Below, piece by piece: positions 240 through 18,436 of a DNA stretch of 64,000 nt; position 1 is the stretch's first letter; each line of letters opens with the position of its first letter. Source of the stretch: a virus; IMG/VR virus record IMGVR_UViG_3300028558_000022, positions 1 through 64,000 of that record. One strand, written 5' to 3'. The position numbers and the translations under genes are program-made. The notes below the pieces were generated by a model that saw nothing but the letters and a program-made list of their open reading frames with translations, searched no databases and was not told the origin of the DNA.

Positions 240-349
240 AGTCCGGCCCGCCTAATATCTACCCGGCTTTACGGGTAGGACCGCGCGATTAAGCGTCAAA
301 GTGTCCCTCGAAAGAGATGGATCGACGACGGCGGCCTTCGTTGAAAAGT

Positions 350-423
350 GCAAGTGGGTTGGATTCGAACCAACGACGCCCGACTCCTAATGTCGGTGCT
401 CTGCCGGGCTGAGCTACCACCTA
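350..423 (-). tRNA. tRNA-like gene, anticodon TAG (nominally Leu) with a short variable arm; atypical
   Basis: Cloverleaf TAGGTGG TA GCTC..GAGC A CCGAC ATTAGGA GTCGG GCGTC GTTGG TTCGAAT CCAAC CCACTTG C. No encoded CCA. Confidence 0.7.
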
Positions 424-434
424 CGTGTTGAAAA

Positions 435-509
435 TGGCTCCCCCGATAGGACTCGGACCTATAACCGCTCGGTTAACAGCCGAGTGCTCTGCCGTTGAGC
501 TACAGAGGA
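435..509 (-). tRNA. tRNA-Asn(GTT)
   Basis: Cloverleaf TCCTCTG..CTCGG CTGTTAA CCGAG..ATAGG TCCGAGT CCTAT CGGGGGA G CCA. CCA is encoded; the T-loop reads TCC instead of TTC. Confidence 0.92.
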
Positions 510-6022: not shown

Positions 6023-6096
6023 CGGGGAGTACCTCAGTTGGATAGAGGACCGGGCTATCTGCCCGGAAGTCGGTGGTTCGAGTCCACTCTGCCCGG
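6023..6096 (+). tRNA. tRNA-like gene, anticodon ATC (nominally Asp); atypical
   Basis: CGGGGAG TA CCTC..GAGG A CCGGG CTATCTG CCCGG AAGTC GGTGG TTCGAGT CCACT CTGCCCG. A34, T37, a G:G mismatch, an extended acceptor stem and no CCA. Confidence 0.65.
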
Positions 6097-6122
6097 CATC
6101 AAGTTGAGAGGAGAAAAAGTCA

Positions 6123-6377
6123 ATGAACATTCCGTTCTTTAGCAAGTTGTTTGCAAAGGTCAAGGCCAGCATTACGGCTGCCGAAGGCTCCGCGTTCGTC
6201 AAGATCGCAGAGGCCGAAGCGAAGGGTCTCGAAGCCAAGGGCCGTATTGTGGCAATCGACGCCGCGAACAAGGCCAAGACCGAGCTGGTCGCCTTCTACG
6301 AGAAGGAAGCCTCACGCGTTCACGCCGAGGCCGACAAGATCAAGGCAGACTTCGACGCGATTCTCGCGAAGCTGTAA
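6123..6377 (+). CDS. Ala/Lys-rich helical hypothetical protein
   Basis: ORF with GAGGAG RBS. Confidence 0.75.
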   Translation: MNIPFFSKLFAKVKASITAAEGSAFVKIAEAEAKGLEAKGRIVAIDAANKAKTELVAFYEKEASRVHAEADKIKADFDAILAKL

Positions 6378-6386
6378 TCGCATTAC

Positions 6387-6478
6387 GCCCCACGCGCAAC
6401 TTACCAATTACGCTGCACTGCCACTCGTGAAACGCGTGTAACGGTGGGAGGGCCGGTTTGATACCGGGGTGAGGCACC
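6387..6478 (+). ncRNA. possible tRNA-like structured RNA
   Basis: GCCCCAC/GTGAGGC-ACC terminal stem and a CCGG-TTTGATA-CCGG T-arm-like hairpin; no canonical D or anticodon arm. Confidence 0.3.
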
Positions 6479-6503
6479 TTAACATTTCTCGGAGATCACT
6501 CAA

Positions 6504-6614
6504 ATGATCGTAGTCCTTCTCGTCATGTGGTTACTGGGATACGGCGCTGCAATTGACGCCGCGTTCCATGCACACACTTTGCTCTTCATCCTTGGATTGA
6601 TCTTTCTCGGATAG
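6504..6614 (+). CDS. small membrane protein (36 aa)
   Basis: Manual translation MIVVLLVMWLLGYGAAIDAAFHAHTLLFILGLIFLG, with GGAG RBS. Confidence 0.6.
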   Translation: MIVVLLVMWLLGYGAAIDAAFHAHTLLFILGLIFLG

Positions 6615-6980
6615 AGCGCCAAGAACGCACGTAAACTCGCATTTCGGACATGGGTTCGATTCCCATCCGGTCCACCAGAGAGGGTAGTAGACTCGGGCTG
6701 GGTAATGTCACAACATTGGTCCTAGAGCAATACGACTGAGCTTGTGTACTACCTTCTCTTGTGGGCCGGTCACGGTTTCGACGGAATAAGGGCGTGCAAG
6801 TAGCCGACTACTTTAACAGCGGAAAACAACAACTGCCGAAACTCTCGTCAGTAAGCGTAGCGCAAAGGTGATCCCGTTCGTGAGCCGCAAGGTTCGCGCG
6901 TTGGTTCCACAGACCGCGATGCTGTTGGCAGCTTAGGCTGCCGGGGGTTCGTCCCGAATCCTAGCAACAGAAGTTCTCAC
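6615..6980 (+). ncRNA. ssrA: tmRNA, circularly permuted two-piece form
   Basis: The acceptor 3' half (TTTCGGAC ATGGG TTCGATT CCCAT CCGGTCC ACCA, ends 6677) precedes the 5' half (GGGCCGG TCACGGTTTCGACGG, starts 6763). G3:U70 pair; hairpin intervening segment; tag ORF 6835-6936 ends LLAA. Outer ends are approximate. Confidence 0.92.
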
Positions 6981-7016
6981 CGCGAAAGCACTGAGGACGG
7001 CGGGACTTTTTATGTT

Positions 7017-7135
7017 TCACCGAAAGCAGGGAGCACCTTGCGGGGCTTAATGGACCTGCCTGAAAGGTTGTCCTCTCCGGTGTCGTCCGCGCGGGCCGGA
7101 GATGAGTCAATAGACGGTAAAAATCCGTCCGGTGA
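7017..7135 (+). ncRNA. candidate multi-stem structured RNA
   Basis: TCACCG/CGGTGA closing stem enclosing four hairpins; non-coding; lies between the tmRNA and a tRNA-like gene. Confidence 0.4.
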
Positions 7136-7143
7136 GTAGCTCA

Positions 7144-7215
7144 AGATCGGTAGTTTAATGGCAAAACAACAGGCCCTTGCTGCCTGTGTTCCGGGTTCGA
7201 GTCCCGTCCGATCTT
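7144..7215 (+). tRNA. tRNA-like gene, anticodon TTG (nominally Gln); atypical
   Basis: AGATCGG TA GTTT..AAAC A ACAGGC CCTTGCT GCCTGT GTT CCGGG TTCGAGT CCCGT CCGATCT. C33 and C37; acceptor stem extends to 11 bp; no CCA. Confidence 0.65.
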
Positions 7216-7256
7216 GAGAATAGCTGTTCTTCCCGAAAATTTTTTCCTGAGGTCAA

Positions 7257-13223: not shown

Positions 13224-13685
13224 ATGGAACCCAATTACAAAATTGAGAGCGGAACCCATTACAAACCCAGTACGCCCGATGAGGTTATCAGGCTTTTGGA
13301 ACGGTCCCGGCATACCGGGGAACGAATCCGCATACACTACGGGGACGCCACAACGGGCCGTGATTGGCTTGAAGAATGGGATGTTACCGGGCATATTGGC
13401 CGGAGTATGGGGCCGGTAAAAATCCCCCTAATGATTGCAACGGCCCGCAGTACGGGCGGCCCCGGTATCCTTGACGATTGCATTGTAAAAATTCGTTCGA
13501 CGCGCGGCGGAGCTGTACTGTATCAGCATCCGGCATATAACGCGGGCCGGGTAACTCTTAGAGACGAACCCGGCGAGCTGTACGCGTTCAAAGTGGACCG
13601 GGACGGCGTAACCCATGCCGGATTTAGAACAGCTCGCGAGCGGGCCGCATGGGTCGCAAAAATGGGTTTGACGGTCACGGCGTAA
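13224..13685 (+). CDS. conserved hypothetical MGE protein
   Basis: YGD..TGRDWLEE.DV.G.IGRS.G..KIPL...S.GG..ILDDCIVKI. Confidence 0.8.
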   Translation: MEPNYKIESGTHYKPSTPDEVIRLLERSRHTGERIRIHYGDATTGRDWLEEWDVTGHIGRSMGPVKIPLMIATARSTGGPGILDDCIVKIRSTRGGAVLYQHPAYNAGRVTLRDEPGELYAFKVDRDGVTHAGFRTARERAAWVAKMGLTVTA

Positions 13686-13893
13686 CCCGTACCAGTACGG
13701 ACACACACACACACGGAGGTTAAAGACAATGGAACATCAGACGTTTATCCCCTATGTTCTCGCATTGGTTGACCGGGTTTTCCAAAAGTACATGACGGAA
13801 CCCGCGAACCCGGCCCAGCTCTAAAACTTTTTTCTAATTGTTTTCGGTTTTCGCTTGACTCTTGACTAAATCTCCGGCAATATCTTTTTCAGG

Positions 13894-13910
13894 TTTGACA
13901 ATTTGTCAAA
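13894..13910. promoter_or_regulatory. perfect operator palindrome
   Basis: TTTGACAATTTGTCAAA, downstream of two TTGACT hexamers. Confidence 0.85.
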
Positions 13911-13935
13911 CATTTTCAGACAAGAGGCGGACACA

Positions 13936-14115
13936 ATGCACAAATACATTGTCACCTTTGCAGGTTTTCGCGGAACCCGTGACCGGTCCGTAACAGTAAC
14001 GGCCCCGGACCCGGAAACCGCGAAATTTGACGCTATCGCAACTAACCCCGGATGGTTCGCCGTCCGGTCCGTAGAACTGGCGGCCCATGTCAATCGTTCA
14101 CAGCTTGCCGCCTAA
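13936..14115 (+). CDS. hypothetical protein ending QLAA
   Basis: GAGG RBS, ATG 13936. Confidence 0.7.
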   Translation: MHKYIVTFAGFRGTRDRSVTVTAPDPETAKFDAIATNPGWFAVRSVELAAHVNRSQLAA

Positions 14116-14269
14116 CATAGCGGCGGAGCTGGACGCGGCCCGCAAGCGTACCGGGGACACGGACGCGTTACGGATCGCGGCCCAGCGTTTACCGGCACTG
14201 TTAGCACTAACCCCGGCCCAGTTTGAACGGATCGCGGCGGAACTTCTGAAAAACAAATCTAACCTTTGA
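14087..14269 (+). CDS. hypothetical protein
   Basis: ORF track; fills the gap before the AAA gene. Confidence 0.55.
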   Translation: MSIVHSLPPNIAAELDAARKRTGDTDALRIAAQRLPALLALTPAQFERIAAELLKNKSNL

Positions 14270-14279
14270 GGTTTTGAAC

Positions 14280-15818
14280 ATGGAATTTATCGCACAATTC
14301 AAGGCGGCCCGGCGAGTAAGTACGCCTCTCGTATCTATCCGAACCTTTGACGCGAAGTCCACAACGGACGCAATACGCGCGGCACTCGGGGAAAAGCTGA
14401 AAGATAATGCTTTGATTCTCTGGGACACAATGAACGGTATGCGGGCGCTAACGGAACGCGGCGGCGAAGAGCTTGCACACATCTTACAGGGTGCGGACCC
14501 AGCGGCGAGTATGGACCTTGCGTCAACTCTGAAAATGGCGGAAAACGCCCGGACTAACGTTACTCTGTTTTTGTCCAATGCACATTTATTCGTCAAGAGT
14601 GACGAACCCGCGATAATTCAAGGCGTCTGGAACTTGCGCGATAACTTCAAGGCAAACGGAAACATGCTCGTACTGCTCTCACATCCGGGCGCATCTTTAC
14701 CGGTCGAGTTGGTTTCCGATGTTCTGGTATTGGATGAACCCCTTCCGACACGGGCGGAGCTGGGCGCAATCATCGGTAACACTTTTAAGTTTGCCAAACT
14801 CGAAACCCCGGACGCCGGAACGCTGGAAAAAGCAACTGATGCCCTCATCGGTTTACCCGCGTTCCCGGCTGAACAGTCTACCGCGATGTGTTTGGACACG
14901 AAGTCTAAGGCGCTAGACGTGGCGGAACTTTGGGCGCAAAAAAGAGAGATCATAAGCCAAACCCCCGGCCTGTCAATGTGGACGGGTTCCGAAAAGCTGG
15001 ACGATATCGGCGGCCTAGAGTCCGTCAAGGATTTTTGCTCCGCCGTTATGACCGGCAAAGACGCGCCAAAAGTCATTATCTTTTTGGACGAGGTAGAAAA
15101 GCTCTTCGCCGGTACCGGTACGGACCTATCCGGCGTCAAAACGGAACTAACCGGCGAAATGCTCAAATGGATGCAGGATCGCGAAATAGACGGAACTATT
15201 TTTATCGGGGTTCCGGGCGCATCTAAAAGCCAACTTGCAAAGTCTTTGGGCGGTTCGTTCGGCGTTCCGGTAATTCATTTTAATCTGGCAGCTATGCAAA
15301 GCTCACTAGTTGGAAGCTCGGGCGCAAATCTGCGGGCCGCCATGAAAACGGTTGACGCAATCAGTGACGGGCGTATCTTTGCGATTGCAACGTCTAACGG
15401 TATTGATTCTCTACCGGCTGAGCTTCAATCTAGATTCCAGCTCGGGACGTTTTTCTTTGATGCACCGGACGCGGAAGAGCGGGCCGCAATCTGGGATATT
15501 TACCGGAACAAATACAGCATACCGGCTGAACAAAAGACGCCGGAGTCTAACGGTTGGACCGGTCGCGAAATAAAGGAATGCACCAAAAAGGCGTACCGGC
15601 TGAACTGGACGCTAGAAAAGGCGGCCCAGTACGTTGTCCCGGTCACGAAGTCTAACGCGGAACGGATAAACGGTCTCCGGGCGGCGTGCTCGGGTAAGTA
15701 TCTATCCGCATCGAAGCCGGGCGTCTACCAGTACACGGGCGCAACGGCGGCCCCGGTCCCGTCACACACGGTCGCGCATAACACGGGCGGACGGGTTGTC
15801 CGGTTTGACGAAGAATAA
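14280..15818 (+). CDS. Ycf46-like AAA+ ATPase with swapped Walker B and Walker A segments
   Basis: Degenerate N-terminal AAA (LPVEL..LP); DIGGL; FLDEVEK precedes GVPGASKS; ATSN..LPAEL..RF; WTGREI. C-terminus GGRVVRFDEE. Confidence 0.85.
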   Translation: MEFIAQFKAARRVSTPLVSIRTFDAKSTTDAIRAALGEKLKDNALILWDTMNGMRALTERGGEELAHILQGADPAASMDLASTLKMAENARTNVTLFLSNAHLFVKSDEPAIIQGVWNLRDNFKANGNMLVLLSHPGASLPVELVSDVLVLDEPLPTRAELGAIIGNTFKFAKLETPDAGTLEKATDALIGLPAFPAEQSTAMCLDTKSKALDVAELWAQKREIISQTPGLSMWTGSEKLDDIGGLESVKDFCSAVMTGKDAPKVIIFLDEVEKLFAGTGTDLSGVKTELTGEMLKWMQDREIDGTIFIGVPGASKSQLAKSLGGSFGVPVIHFNLAAMQSSLVGSSGANLRAAMKTVDAISDGRIFAIATSNGIDSLPAELQSRFQLGTFFFDAPDAEERAAIWDIYRNKYSIPAEQKTPESNGWTGREIKECTKKAYRLNWTLEKAAQYVVPVTKSNAERINGLRAACSGKYLSASKPGVYQYTGATAAPVPSHTVAHNTGGRVVRFDEE

Positions 15819-15864
15819 TACAAAGTAATTGCATCGAATCCACAAACGGAGAATCGAAAAAAAC

Positions 15865-16305
15865 ATGAGCGCATACAGCGAAGTACAAACACAATTCACG
15901 GACGGGGAACTTCTGATAGAAGCTCTAAAAGAGCTGGGATACAACCCCGTCAACTGTATCGGCAAACCCGAACCCCTGATAGGTTATCAGGGGGATTACA
16001 GAACGGCGGACGGCGAAGGGCATACGCGCGACGCGTCAAAGGCTATGCGGGCGGACGTGATTATACCCCGGTCACAAGTGGGCGGATCTTCAAATGATGT
16101 GGGATTTGTCCGGGGTTCCGATGGGAAGTTTTCGGCGATAATCTCCGATTATGACTCGCGACGGCATAACGCGGAATGGCTTAAAAAGCTCCGCACGGCA
16201 TACGCGGAAAAAGGAATCTTGAAGCAAGCGAAGCGGGCCGGGTTGACTCTGACAGGGAAAAAGACCGTAAACGGAAAAGTTCAATTTCAATTCCTGAAAC
16301 ACTAA
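15865..16305 (+). CDS. DUF1257 (Ycf35-like) protein
   Basis: MSAYSEVQT.F.D...LIEALKELGY; L.GYQG; NDVGF; follows the Ycf46-like AAA gene. Confidence 0.8.
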   Translation: MSAYSEVQTQFTDGELLIEALKELGYNPVNCIGKPEPLIGYQGDYRTADGEGHTRDASKAMRADVIIPRSQVGGSSNDVGFVRGSDGKFSAIISDYDSRRHNAEWLKKLRTAYAEKGILKQAKRAGLTLTGKKTVNGKVQFQFLKH

Positions 16306-16356: not shown

Positions 16357-16545
16357 ATGGCGGGCGCTAAAACTATCACTGTAGAGCTGGACCCGGACAC
16401 GGCGTCAATATCGGTTGACACTAACGGGTTTCAGGGTCAAGGGTGTGACGCGATTCACAAGATGTTCGCGAACATCGGGACCGTTACGGCATCGAAGAAA
16501 AAGCCGGAATACAAACAGCAAACACTAAGCCGGGTTAAACAGTAA
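16357..16545 (+). CDS. DUF2997-like protein
   Basis: I.V..D..GF.G..C...KPEY pattern in the usual AAA/DUF1257/DUF2997 order. Confidence 0.75.
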   Translation: MAGAKTITVELDPDTASISVDTNGFQGQGCDAIHKMFANIGTVTASKKKPEYKQQTLSRVKQ

Positions 16546-16682: not shown

Positions 16683-17306
16683 ATGCTTATACACTCCAAA
16701 CTTGCAAGCTCTACAGTTAACGGCCCCGGAACCCGCGCGGTAATTTGGTTGCAGGGTTGCACGCTGAACTGTACCGGATGCTGGAACCCAAACACACACA
16801 AGTTCGACGCGTCTACTGATACGCCGGTATCGGAGCTTCAAACGTGGCTGCTAAACCTTGACGGCATCGAAGGGGTTACATTTAGCGGCGGCGAATCCTT
16901 ACAGCATGTTATAGAACTTTTACCACTTGCGAAGTTCATACGCGAAGTACGCCCGGAGCTGTCTATAGGCATCTTTACAGGGTACACGGCCCGCGAGCTG
17001 GAGACCGGGAACTGGCAGACGTTACACCCAGCCGGGGTTATGATTCCGGGTTCCGGCGAAGTTTGGGAAAAGTTCCGCGCGTATCTTGACTTTGCAGTTA
17101 TGGGGCGTTTTAACGCCTCAAAGCTCACAACGAAAAAACCGCTGTGCGGTTCGACTAATCAAGACATAATTTTGTTTACGGACCGTTACAACGCCGGGGA
17201 TTTTACGGCACAAGAAACCCAGATAACCATTGACGGGGACGGACTAGTCCAGATCACCGGGTTTCCCGGTCGCGAGTTTATCGAAGCTGTAAAGGGTATG
17301 AACTAA
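16683..17306 (+). CDS. NrdG-like radical SAM (4Fe-4S) protein
   Basis: NGPG.R.VIWLQGCTLNCTGCWNP, TFSGGE and GSTNQ. Confidence 0.9.
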   Translation: MLIHSKLASSTVNGPGTRAVIWLQGCTLNCTGCWNPNTHKFDASTDTPVSELQTWLLNLDGIEGVTFSGGESLQHVIELLPLAKFIREVRPELSIGIFTGYTARELETGNWQTLHPAGVMIPGSGEVWEKFRAYLDFAVMGRFNASKLTTKKPLCGSTNQDIILFTDRYNAGDFTAQETQITIDGDGLVQITGFPGREFIEAVKGMN

Positions 17307-17374
17307 CCCGGCCCAGCTCCGCACGCTTGAAGTTAACGCAATTACAACCCATCAGAAAACGGAGAACAAACACA

Positions 17375-18436
17375 ATGGCAACCCCGGAGATTATCCCTTT
17401 TGAAAACATTTTGATTCCATCAGACGCGGTAATCGCGGAACTTGCCGGAACCCCGGCCCCGGTTTCCGATATCCCAGCGGCCCCGGCCCCGGCTTTTGTG
17501 CCGGAGATCGCGGCCCCGTTCGATGCGGCCCCGGCCCCAAAAGATTTGACAGTCACGGACGCGTCAAGCCTAACGGCGGCAACTGTCTTTTTAAAAACCC
17601 GTTTTGGTATCATCGGGAACTCTCGCAAAGTGTCGGGCGCTGAAGTTCTGGACACGGACGCGGATAAAGCTCTATTGCGAGTGTCAAAACAGCTCTTAGA
17701 CTCGCCGGAGCTGGAAGCGATAAAGCAAGCCGATACAAAAATGCGGACGTGGTTGTATAACGCTTGCTTGCCTTACGATTTGGGCGTCCAACTCTTACCG
17801 AAAAAGTCAATCGAATCCGCACGCGCGAAAATGGCGGAGTTCCGGGCGGAACGCGCGGAACTGGTAGAGAACTTTGTCGCGGCCTATCCGGGGTTACTCG
17901 AAAAGGCGGCGGCCCAGCTCGGATCGCTTTTCAATGCGGCGGACTATCCGACAATTGAGCAAGTCCGGGCAAAGTTCTTTTTCGGTTGGAATATCGTTAC
18001 TTTCGAGGTTCCCGATTCTCTCAAAGAGATCAGCGAGCAAGTTTTTCAAGAGGAAAAGGCGAAGCAAGAGGCGAACTTCAAGGCGGCGGCGGACGAGATT
18101 ACCGCGCTAATGCGTCAAACCATGTTTGACCTAGTGTCACACTTGGAAACCCGGCTAACGCCCGGCGATGATGGGAAACAGAAAATTTTGAAGGAATCCG
18201 CCGTAGCGAATCTCCAAAAGTTTTTAGAATCGTTCGATATCAAAAACGTAACGAATGACGCGGAACTGGCGGCGGTTGTGTCAAAAGCTCGGGAATTAGT
18301 TGACGGTACGTCCGCCGCAACTCTCCGCAGTTCGGACGCGTTCCGCGAAAAGATACGCGCGGGAATGGCAAGCGTAAAGGATCAACTCTCTGGAATGGTC
18401 GAAGAAAAAGCCGGGCGCAAGTTCCGGGACGAATAA
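17375..18436 (+). CDS. DUF3150-like helical protein; C-terminus AGRKFRDE
   Basis: SKQLL; F...YP...LG.LFN..DYP....R.KF; N.TND.EL. GGAG RBS. Confidence 0.7.
   Translation: MATPEIIPFENILIPSDAVIAELAGTPAPVSDIPAAPAPAFVPEIAAPFDAAPAPKDLTVTDASSLTAATVFLKTRFGIIGNSRKVSGAEVLDTDADKALLRVSKQLLDSPELEAIKQADTKMRTWLYNACLPYDLGVQLLPKKSIESARAKMAEFRAERAELVENFVAAYPGLLEKAAAQLGSLFNAADYPTIEQVRAKFFFGWNIVTFEVPDSLKEISEQVFQEEKAKQEANFKAAADEITALMRQTMFDLVSHLETRLTPGDDGKQKILKESAVANLQKFLESFDIKNVTNDAELAAVVSKARELVDGTSAATLRSSDAFREKIRAGMASVKDQLSGMVEEKAGRKFRDE

Follow-up and report, generated by a model that had tools for sequence, protein, structure and literature searches.

The locus and its motif order

The DNA analysed here (the window) comprises the first 64,000 nucleotides of the IMG/VR virus record IMGVR_UViG_3300028558_000022, which is 90,978 bp long and rated complete. 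On its plus strand lies a gene for an AAA+ ATPase of the Ycf46-like type in which the Walker B segment precedes the Walker A segment. The open reading frame (ORF) is listed from a TTG at 14274, and residue numbers are counted from this codon throughout. A GAGG lies 8 nt before the ATG at 14280, and a MEF start is common to a database copy of the protein (P0002) and to the family consensus, favouring ATG 14280 as the start. The parts of the gene are as follows.

14280-15818, plus strand: swapped-order AAA+ gene, 512 aa from the ATG at 14280, frame open
14280-14978, plus strand: N-terminal alpha/beta domain without Walker motifs; match to phrog_8638 at 2.6e-37 on residues 10-255
15000-15053, plus strand: DDIGGL motif (15000-15017) and helix alpha0, residues 243-260; what follows is the Walker B strand and not the P-loop strand
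15057-15185, plus strand: transposed B block, residues 262-304; strand VIIFLDE (15072-15092, D272/E273), EK...SG loop and a helix ending in WMQD
15186-15371, plus strand: A block, residues 305-366; beta1, P-loop GVPGASKS (15207-15230, K318), alpha1, beta2, SLVG and alpha2
15303-15314, plus strand: SLVG at the pore-loop-1 position, within the A block
15375-15398, plus strand: strand beta4 with sensor 1, IFAIATSN (N375); directly after alpha2, where the Walker B block sits in normal-order proteins
15420-15437, plus strand: arginine-finger segment ELQSRF, with R387 and a Ser at 386
15462-15713, plus strand: helical lid, with GWTGREI at 15552-15572 and R431 (15564-15566) at the sensor-2 position

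The translation of 15066-15399 reads, in order, PKVIIFLDEVEK...DLSGV...MLKWMQD (the Walker B block), GTIFIGVPGASKS...VGSSGANLR...DAI (the Walker A block) and IFAIATSN (sensor 1). Read out more widely, the two blocks are KDAPKVIIFLDEVEK...DLSGV...MLKWMQDRE at 15057-15185 and IDGTIFIGVPGASKS...SLVGSSGANLR...DAISDG at 15186-15371. As read from the translation, the order Walker B, Walker A, sensor 1 is confirmed, and it departs from the AAA+ norm. The individual motifs can nonetheless each be recognised. The Walker A pattern GxxxxGK[ST] is present as GVPGASKS, with K318 and S/T319 conserved, the Walker B pattern hhhhDE as VIIFLDE, and the polar sensor-1 residue at the end of beta4 as N375; it is the linear order Walker A, Walker B, sensor 1 that is absent. 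An earlier note on this DNA had read the same succession (DIGGL, Walker B block, Walker A block, sensor 1) in one open frame and had pointed to GASKS in place of GxGKS; both observations hold, and its coordinates were correct.

The Pfam AAA profile (PF00004) matches the protein at 46.4 bits against a cutoff of 21.2 bits, in two separate stretches, one of which aligns residues 309-360 to profile positions 2-53. Identity with the anti-phage ATPase IetA/IteA was considered and dropped: the NCBIfam model scores 29.3 bits against a cutoff of 510 bits, with residues 310-355 alone matching, and the PADLOC match is likewise confined to the Walker A stretch.

Block transposition, predicted fold and origin

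The protein was compared by BLASTP with a normal-order relative, the Streptococcus satellite Javan368 protein (P0122). Along the main diagonal the Walker B block of the Javan368 protein drops into a gap at residues 365/366 of the window protein, and a second high-scoring segment pair aligns residues 256-302 with 320-368 of the relative. Profiles built from 261 swapped-order and 121 normal-order proteins gave the same picture in hhalign. The main alignment runs from 10-480 to 12-502 (E 2.9e-33), and a transposed second alignment pairs 259-304 with 323-370 (probability 96.5%, E 9e-10). Cut out by itself, the B block matches the normal Walker B block at E 1.5e-13 over 43-46 columns that include DEIEK, SG and WMQ, and the A block alone reaches E 8e-17 with its Walker A counterpart in normal-order proteins, figures well outside what chance would give. 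The block missing after alpha2 (at 365/366) and the block present before beta1 are equal in length, at ~43 residues.

The N-terminal domain, the DIGGL helix, sensor 1 and the lid are all collinear with normal-order relatives, and the internal blocks alone are transposed. In these alignments the change is the transposition of one beta-alpha unit, which is equal to an exchange of two adjacent blocks. Because both ends of the domain are collinear and the exchange is confined to internal blocks, it is not a circular permutation, in which N- and C-terminal parts change places. The two transposed diagonals that the earlier note expected of a dot plot are thus found with both programs, canonical collinearity is excluded, and its description of a non-circular exchange of two internal blocks is borne out. 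Circularly permuted GTPases of the YlqF/YjeQ type are P-loop NTPases with altered motif order in which the fold is kept. They differ from the present case in that their permutation is circular and affects a GTPase domain, whereas here internal blocks have been exchanged and the ends of the AAA+ (ASCE) domain remain in place.

AlphaFold models of the protein are confident, with a predicted local distance difference test score (pLDDT) of 90.9 and a predicted template modelling score (pTM) of 0.80 for the whole protein, and pLDDT 96.0 and pTM 0.90 for the module 236-480. The modelled elements are helix 249-260, strand 267-271, helix 288-302, strand 306-312, helix 318-329, strand 333-336, helix 346-364, strand 368-374, helix 382-387, strand 391-395 and the lid. 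The modelled module has the alpha/beta core and lid of an AAA+ fold: it aligns with spastin (6p07_A) at Z 16.3 and a root mean square deviation of 2.2 over 191 of 245 residues, and further structural matches are NVL, Pex1/6, Vps4 (6ap1_A, Z 15.5), Rix7 and FtsH. At most 203 of the 245 residues align structurally, which fits alignment of all but the ~43-residue B block, the reported ranges giving first-to-last positions only.

Mean-field coupling analysis was applied to the 261-sequence alignment (Meff 183), a small alignment for this purpose and one used with no benchmark against a solved contact map. The Walker B strand 267-271 is strongly coupled with the sensor-1 strand (270-373, 269-370, 271-370 and 274-372), and beta1 with beta5 (310-395). 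Helix 288-302 is coupled both with helix 346-364 (299-361, 303-361, 291-350 and 295-354) and with alpha4 (293-381 and 297-383), and alpha0 with alpha1 (255-325, 251-321 and 259-329). A further coupling, 267-364, lies between the first residues of the Walker B strand and the last of alpha2, the place where the normal covalent link would be. These couplings are consistent with normal packing, and together with the models they point to strands and helices in their usual spatial arrangement, with sheet order 5-1-4-3-2. The rewiring of strand connectivity that had been foreseen for the swap is therefore upheld as regards the new connections, while the spatial arrangement of strands and helices is indicated to be unchanged.

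Coevolution cannot separate contacts within a chain from contacts between chains, and the block is flanked by loops. The swapped block might thus be used in trans, with strand 267-271 and helix 288-302 inserted into the sheet of a neighbouring protomer in a three-dimensional domain swap. We regard this as unlikely, since in the monomer models the block sits with high confidence inside a single chain (pLDDT 87-98 for the B block) and the linkers to beta1 are short, with ~3 residues between helix 288-302 and strand 306-312. Less probable still is that nothing was permuted, and that a normal AAA domain lost its Walker B segment and gained an unrelated look-alike insert, leaving a pseudo-enzyme that binds ATP and does not hydrolyse it. 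Pfam and PDB sequence searches do align the Walker A half and the sensor-1 half collinearly and nothing more, and the P-loop is non-canonical. The supposed insert, however, is the block that matches its normal counterpart across DEIEK, SG and WMQ and has the length of the one missing at 365/366; its D272 and E273 are invariant or nearly so, and it coevolves with beta4 and alpha2. Finally, although the window comes from a metagenome-derived virus record, an order created by misjoined reads in a chimeric contig is scarcely credible, as contigs from other runs (X3, 14959-15700; X5, 14965-15424) cover the swapped region with zero differences, the same order occurs in a cultured phage and in hundreds of independent assemblies, and it is clade-wide on the tree.

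The agreement of these independent contigs with the window removes the misassembly that the earlier note had named as grounds for rejecting its reading, and other proteins of the same order, which it had proposed to look for, exist both as gp103 of the cultured Tunturiibacter phage Tunturi_3 and as a large family. Run X5 also has a reported 'joint', which was disregarded because its basis is a pair of 21-base matches to a contig of 65 kb. The Tunturi_3 protein (XOB77284.1, annotated 'ATPase'; genome of 97.6 kb) is 47% identical to the window protein, and Tunturi_3 is a cultured relative of the window's phage; in the publication on Tunturi_3 the ATPase goes unmentioned (PMC11924767).

An exhaustive family search of 1.84 billion cluster representatives returned 5445 clusters at E <= 1e-3 and 1108 at E <= 1e-30, and the best 150 of them are all collinear with the query along its full length. 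For 157 relatives fetched from IMG/VR and GTDB genomes, block order was classed with hidden Markov models of the blocks, which replaced motif regular expressions that had left 61 of 269 family members unclassified. The B block precedes the A block in 102 of these loci and follows it in 55. The swapped form is found on viral contigs and on contigs of metagenome-assembled genomes (MAGs), and some of these contigs are megabase-sized. Most of the MAGs are Acidobacteriota (Terriglobia, Bryobacteraceae), and the others include Nitrospirota, Myxococcota, Armatimonadota and Planctomycetota. On some contigs the swapped-order gene is present twice, as copies or fragments spaced by a few kb (L140, 604-1653 and 3875-5047; L153, 2-637 and 2938-4476), and the Acidobacteriota MAG CAWHRX01 has four separate swapped-order loci (L087, L088, L122 and L135). 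A literature search covering permuted AAA proteins, non-circular permutation, Ycf46 and DUF1257/DUF2997, with thin reach into subscription journals, found no account of Walker B before Walker A in an AAA+ protein. In a structure search of BFVD, phage proteins named ycf46 came up at TMq 0.53-0.66, and no hit covered the full length.

The swapped order arose once. With the blocks of 93 swapped proteins re-set into normal order and aligned with 54 normal-order relatives, the order state changes once on the resulting tree (support 99). As the junctions could bias that tree, a control was built from residues 1-245 and 376-end alone, and again there is one change of order (support 100). The nearest normal-order proteins, ~28-29% identical, are encoded on phage contigs and in Planctomycetota MAGs; the motifs WTGAEI and LPPE are common to them and the swapped clade. 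Because all other AAA+ proteins known to us have the normal order, we infer that the swapped order is the derived state.

Catalytic residues, an arginine toggle and a proposed mechanism

The residues expected to act in catalysis are conserved despite the exchange. No variation is seen at E273, K318, G347 or N375 across 150 diverse members of the family, and hardly any at D272 and R387; in a set of 75 members D272 and E273 do not vary, and in the family alignment A1 neither do D272, E273, E275 and K276. The sixth P-loop position is A, G, S or C in the swapped clade (Ser in the window protein) versus G in 54 of 54 normal-order relatives, and the Lys is invariant. By this comparison GASKS is a clade-wide relaxation of the sixth position and not a defect. 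Pore loop 1 has a Leu in the swapped clade, where an aromatic residue is usual. Two homologues carry inteins, one in the P-loop (P0248, 810 aa; GPPG, then C...HN, then CAKS) and one in sensor 1 (P0192, 896 aa; IAT, then C...HN, then CNS). Inteins typically lodge in indispensable active-site motifs, and their presence at the P-loop and sensor 1 gives indirect support for function.

The hallmark of the classical AAA clade is a pair of arginine fingers in the second region of homology together with the lack of an arginine at sensor 2. The two alignment columns that matter here are 386, the middle Arg of ELRRRF, and 431, the sensor-2 position of GWTG-x-EI. All 261 family members have an Arg at one of these positions and none at both: R386 alone is found in 199, which keep the classical state, and R431 alone in 62. 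The window protein is in the minority state, S386/R431, with R387 kept, and so departs from the classical hallmark. In normal-order relatives both finger arginines are always present and the sensor-2 Arg is found in 0 of 54. On a tree built without columns 386 and 431 the toggle state changes 31 times, against a mean of 55.7 and a minimum of 49 for shuffled labels. In 18 phylogenetically independent pairs on well-supported branches the two positions change oppositely in 18 of 18 (p 7.6e-6), and proteins that are 78% identical can differ in toggle state.

As a rule in AAA+ proteins, one and the same gamma-phosphate is served by the finger in trans and by sensor 2 in cis. The strict exchangeability of R386 and R431 therefore argues for a normal inter-subunit active site: it suggests that both residues would reach the same gamma-phosphate at a subunit interface, and that the protein would form a normal AAA ring or spiral. 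When a complex of ATP and three AAA modules was predicted, the score was 0.00, which bears neither way on oligomerisation.

The N-terminal domain is shared with normal-order Ycf46-like proteins (hhalign 10-255 to 12-250, within the main profile alignment). The model of the full protein matches the D1-D2 portion of Cdc48/p97, NVL and Rix7, and a weak internal profile match aligns residues 112-178 with 344-418, the beta4-to-lid part of the active module (E 2e-4). The domain is probably a degenerate, D1-like AAA domain without Walker motifs, such that the protein would consist of one inactive N-terminal AAA-like domain and one catalytic module.

In the mechanism that we propose, the chain would pass through alpha0, beta3' (Walker B), alpha3', beta1 (P-loop), alpha1, beta2, pore loop 1 and alpha2, and then through beta4 (sensor 1), alpha4 (arginine finger), beta5 and the lid. 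The ~43-residue beta3-alpha3 unit has left its place between alpha2 and beta4 and now separates alpha0 from beta1. Given the known AAA+ order 5-1-4-3-2, the three new junctions should all fall in loops at the same edge of the parallel sheet, and by textbook topology each beta-alpha-beta crossover should be right-handed and each helix on its usual face. With the junctions at one edge and the crossovers right-handed, the strands and catalytic residues could occupy their normal positions, and ATP would be bound and hydrolysed as in other AAA proteins.

Overall, we consider it very probable that the gene encodes a Ycf46-like AAA+ ATPase of the classical clade, predicted to be active, with its Walker B and Walker A blocks transposed. 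Several points weigh against this explanation. The spatial order of the strands is derived from coevolution in a modest alignment, from secondary structure and from sequential structure alignments. ATPase activity, oligomeric state, partners and substrate are predictions, those for partners and substrate coming from the gene neighbourhood. Lastly, with a P-loop that lacks the canonical sixth-position Gly and a Leu in pore loop 1, the mechanics may differ from those of textbook AAA unfoldases.

Gene neighbourhood, related systems and implications

Downstream of the ATPase gene, and on the same strand, lies a cassette whose members recur in related loci. Occurrence was counted over the 102 swapped-order loci, many of which are truncated.

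15829-16305, plus strand: DUF1257 (Ycf35-like) gene, Pfam PF06868 at 3.1e-09; in 66 of 102 swapped-order loci
16357-16545, plus strand: DUF2997-like small gene, at 21.4 bits just below the 24.1-bit Pfam cutoff; in 63 of 102
16683-17306, plus strand: radical SAM / Fer4_12, NrdG-like activase gene; in 46 of 102
17327-18436, plus strand: DUF3150-like gene, the most constant neighbour; in 78 of 102, downstream on the same strand in 71

The DUF1257 and DUF2997 pair is thus present in the window and in related loci, and the radical SAM gene is found in 0 of the 55 normal-order loci. This neighbourhood suggests that, in the early/DNA-metabolism region of the phage genome, the ATPase works together with the DUF1257 and DUF2997 proteins, in many cases also with the radical SAM and DUF3150-like proteins. 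As a mode of action we tentatively propose, with low confidence, a protein remodeller that would target or assist the two small proteins. Three ORFs upstream (13224-14269) match no Pfam family and do not recur in the related loci. Of the next large ORFs downstream, that at 19235-20707 matches a family of DNA polymerase processivity factors and includes a RusA-like stretch, and that at 21350-23263 matches a protein containing a DNA-methyltransferase-like segment; the cassette therefore sits in a DNA-metabolism part of the genome. Elsewhere in the window (348-509 and 6023-7216) there are ARAGORN predictions for four tRNA genes: Leu(tag), Asn(gtt), Gln(ttg) and an Asp gene whose anticodon, atc, is unusual. 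Two overlapping 'tmRNA' (transfer-messenger RNA) predictions at 6239-7027 look doubtful.

The closest known system is formed by normal-order Ycf46-like proteins from phages and mobile elements (Javan368 QBX09687.1; IMG/VR loci L035, L036, L038 and L040; Planctomycetota MAG loci L156-L163), which sit on the other side of a single tree branch. They have the same N-terminal domain, DIGGL motif, AAA module and lid, hold the motifs DEIEK, WMQ, FF.D.P and WTGAEI in common with the swapped clade, and in some cases have DUF1257, DUF2997 and DUF3150-like neighbours. They differ in the order Walker A, Walker B, sensor 1, in a P-loop GK (54 of 54), in two arginines in R-x-x-R-F-D and in a mostly aromatic pore loop 1. 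The window protein thus has the N-terminal domain of the Ycf46-like family and departs from collinearity with it over the AAA module. Among classical AAA proteins, those of the meiotic group (spastin, Vps4, katanin) are the best structural matches, and we take the contiguous RRRF arginine-finger segment of the swapped family to resemble that of Vps4 and spastin; they differ in their normal order, in having another N-terminal domain and in lacking a sensor-2 Arg.

Cyanobacterial and plastid Ycf46, the motif order of which we take to be normal, has the same family name and cassette type. In Synechococcus PCC 7942, ycf46 lies in a three-gene operon (bioRxiv 10.1101/2025.07.21.665879), and DUF1257, which is Ycf35, clusters with DUF2997 in cyanobacteria (PMC4284462). 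The stress and circadian links of the cyanobacterial protein are not transferable to the phage. In Bordetella phage BPP-1 the conserved HK97 capsid fold has likewise been rewired by nature in a non-circular way (PMC3863775). That case concerns a structural protein with no catalytic site in one lineage, whereas the swapped AAA+ protein represents an enzyme core in a very large family.

Beyond the explanation given above, the swapped clade could be a mechanistically distinct AAA subclass, in which the alpha3/pore-loop-2 region directly precedes the P-loop, the active site is relaxed, as the non-Gly P-loop and the Leu of pore loop 1 would show, and the Arg is supplied in cis or in trans. We hold this to be doubtful, though far from negligible; if true, proteins such as this one would fire ATP with a dependence on the neighbouring subunit unlike that of any characterised AAA protein.

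To our knowledge, Walker A, Walker B, sensor 1 is regarded as an invariable order in AAA+ and other ASCE P-loop ATPases, and both domain models and annotation pipelines rely on it. Here Pfam sees fragments, and the gene of the cultured phage is labelled simply 'ATPase'. A natural, ancient and very widespread clade that has its two core blocks exchanged and keeps all of its catalytic residues would mean that the fold tolerates non-circular rewiring. The clade also draws attention to a large group of phage proteins whose putative partners are DUF1257 and DUF2997 proteins. It would offer a natural test case for how chain connectivity relates to folding and to the coupling of the ATP site with the pore loops and, through its toggle, a natural experiment in which the arginine for the gamma-phosphate is supplied in cis or in trans.

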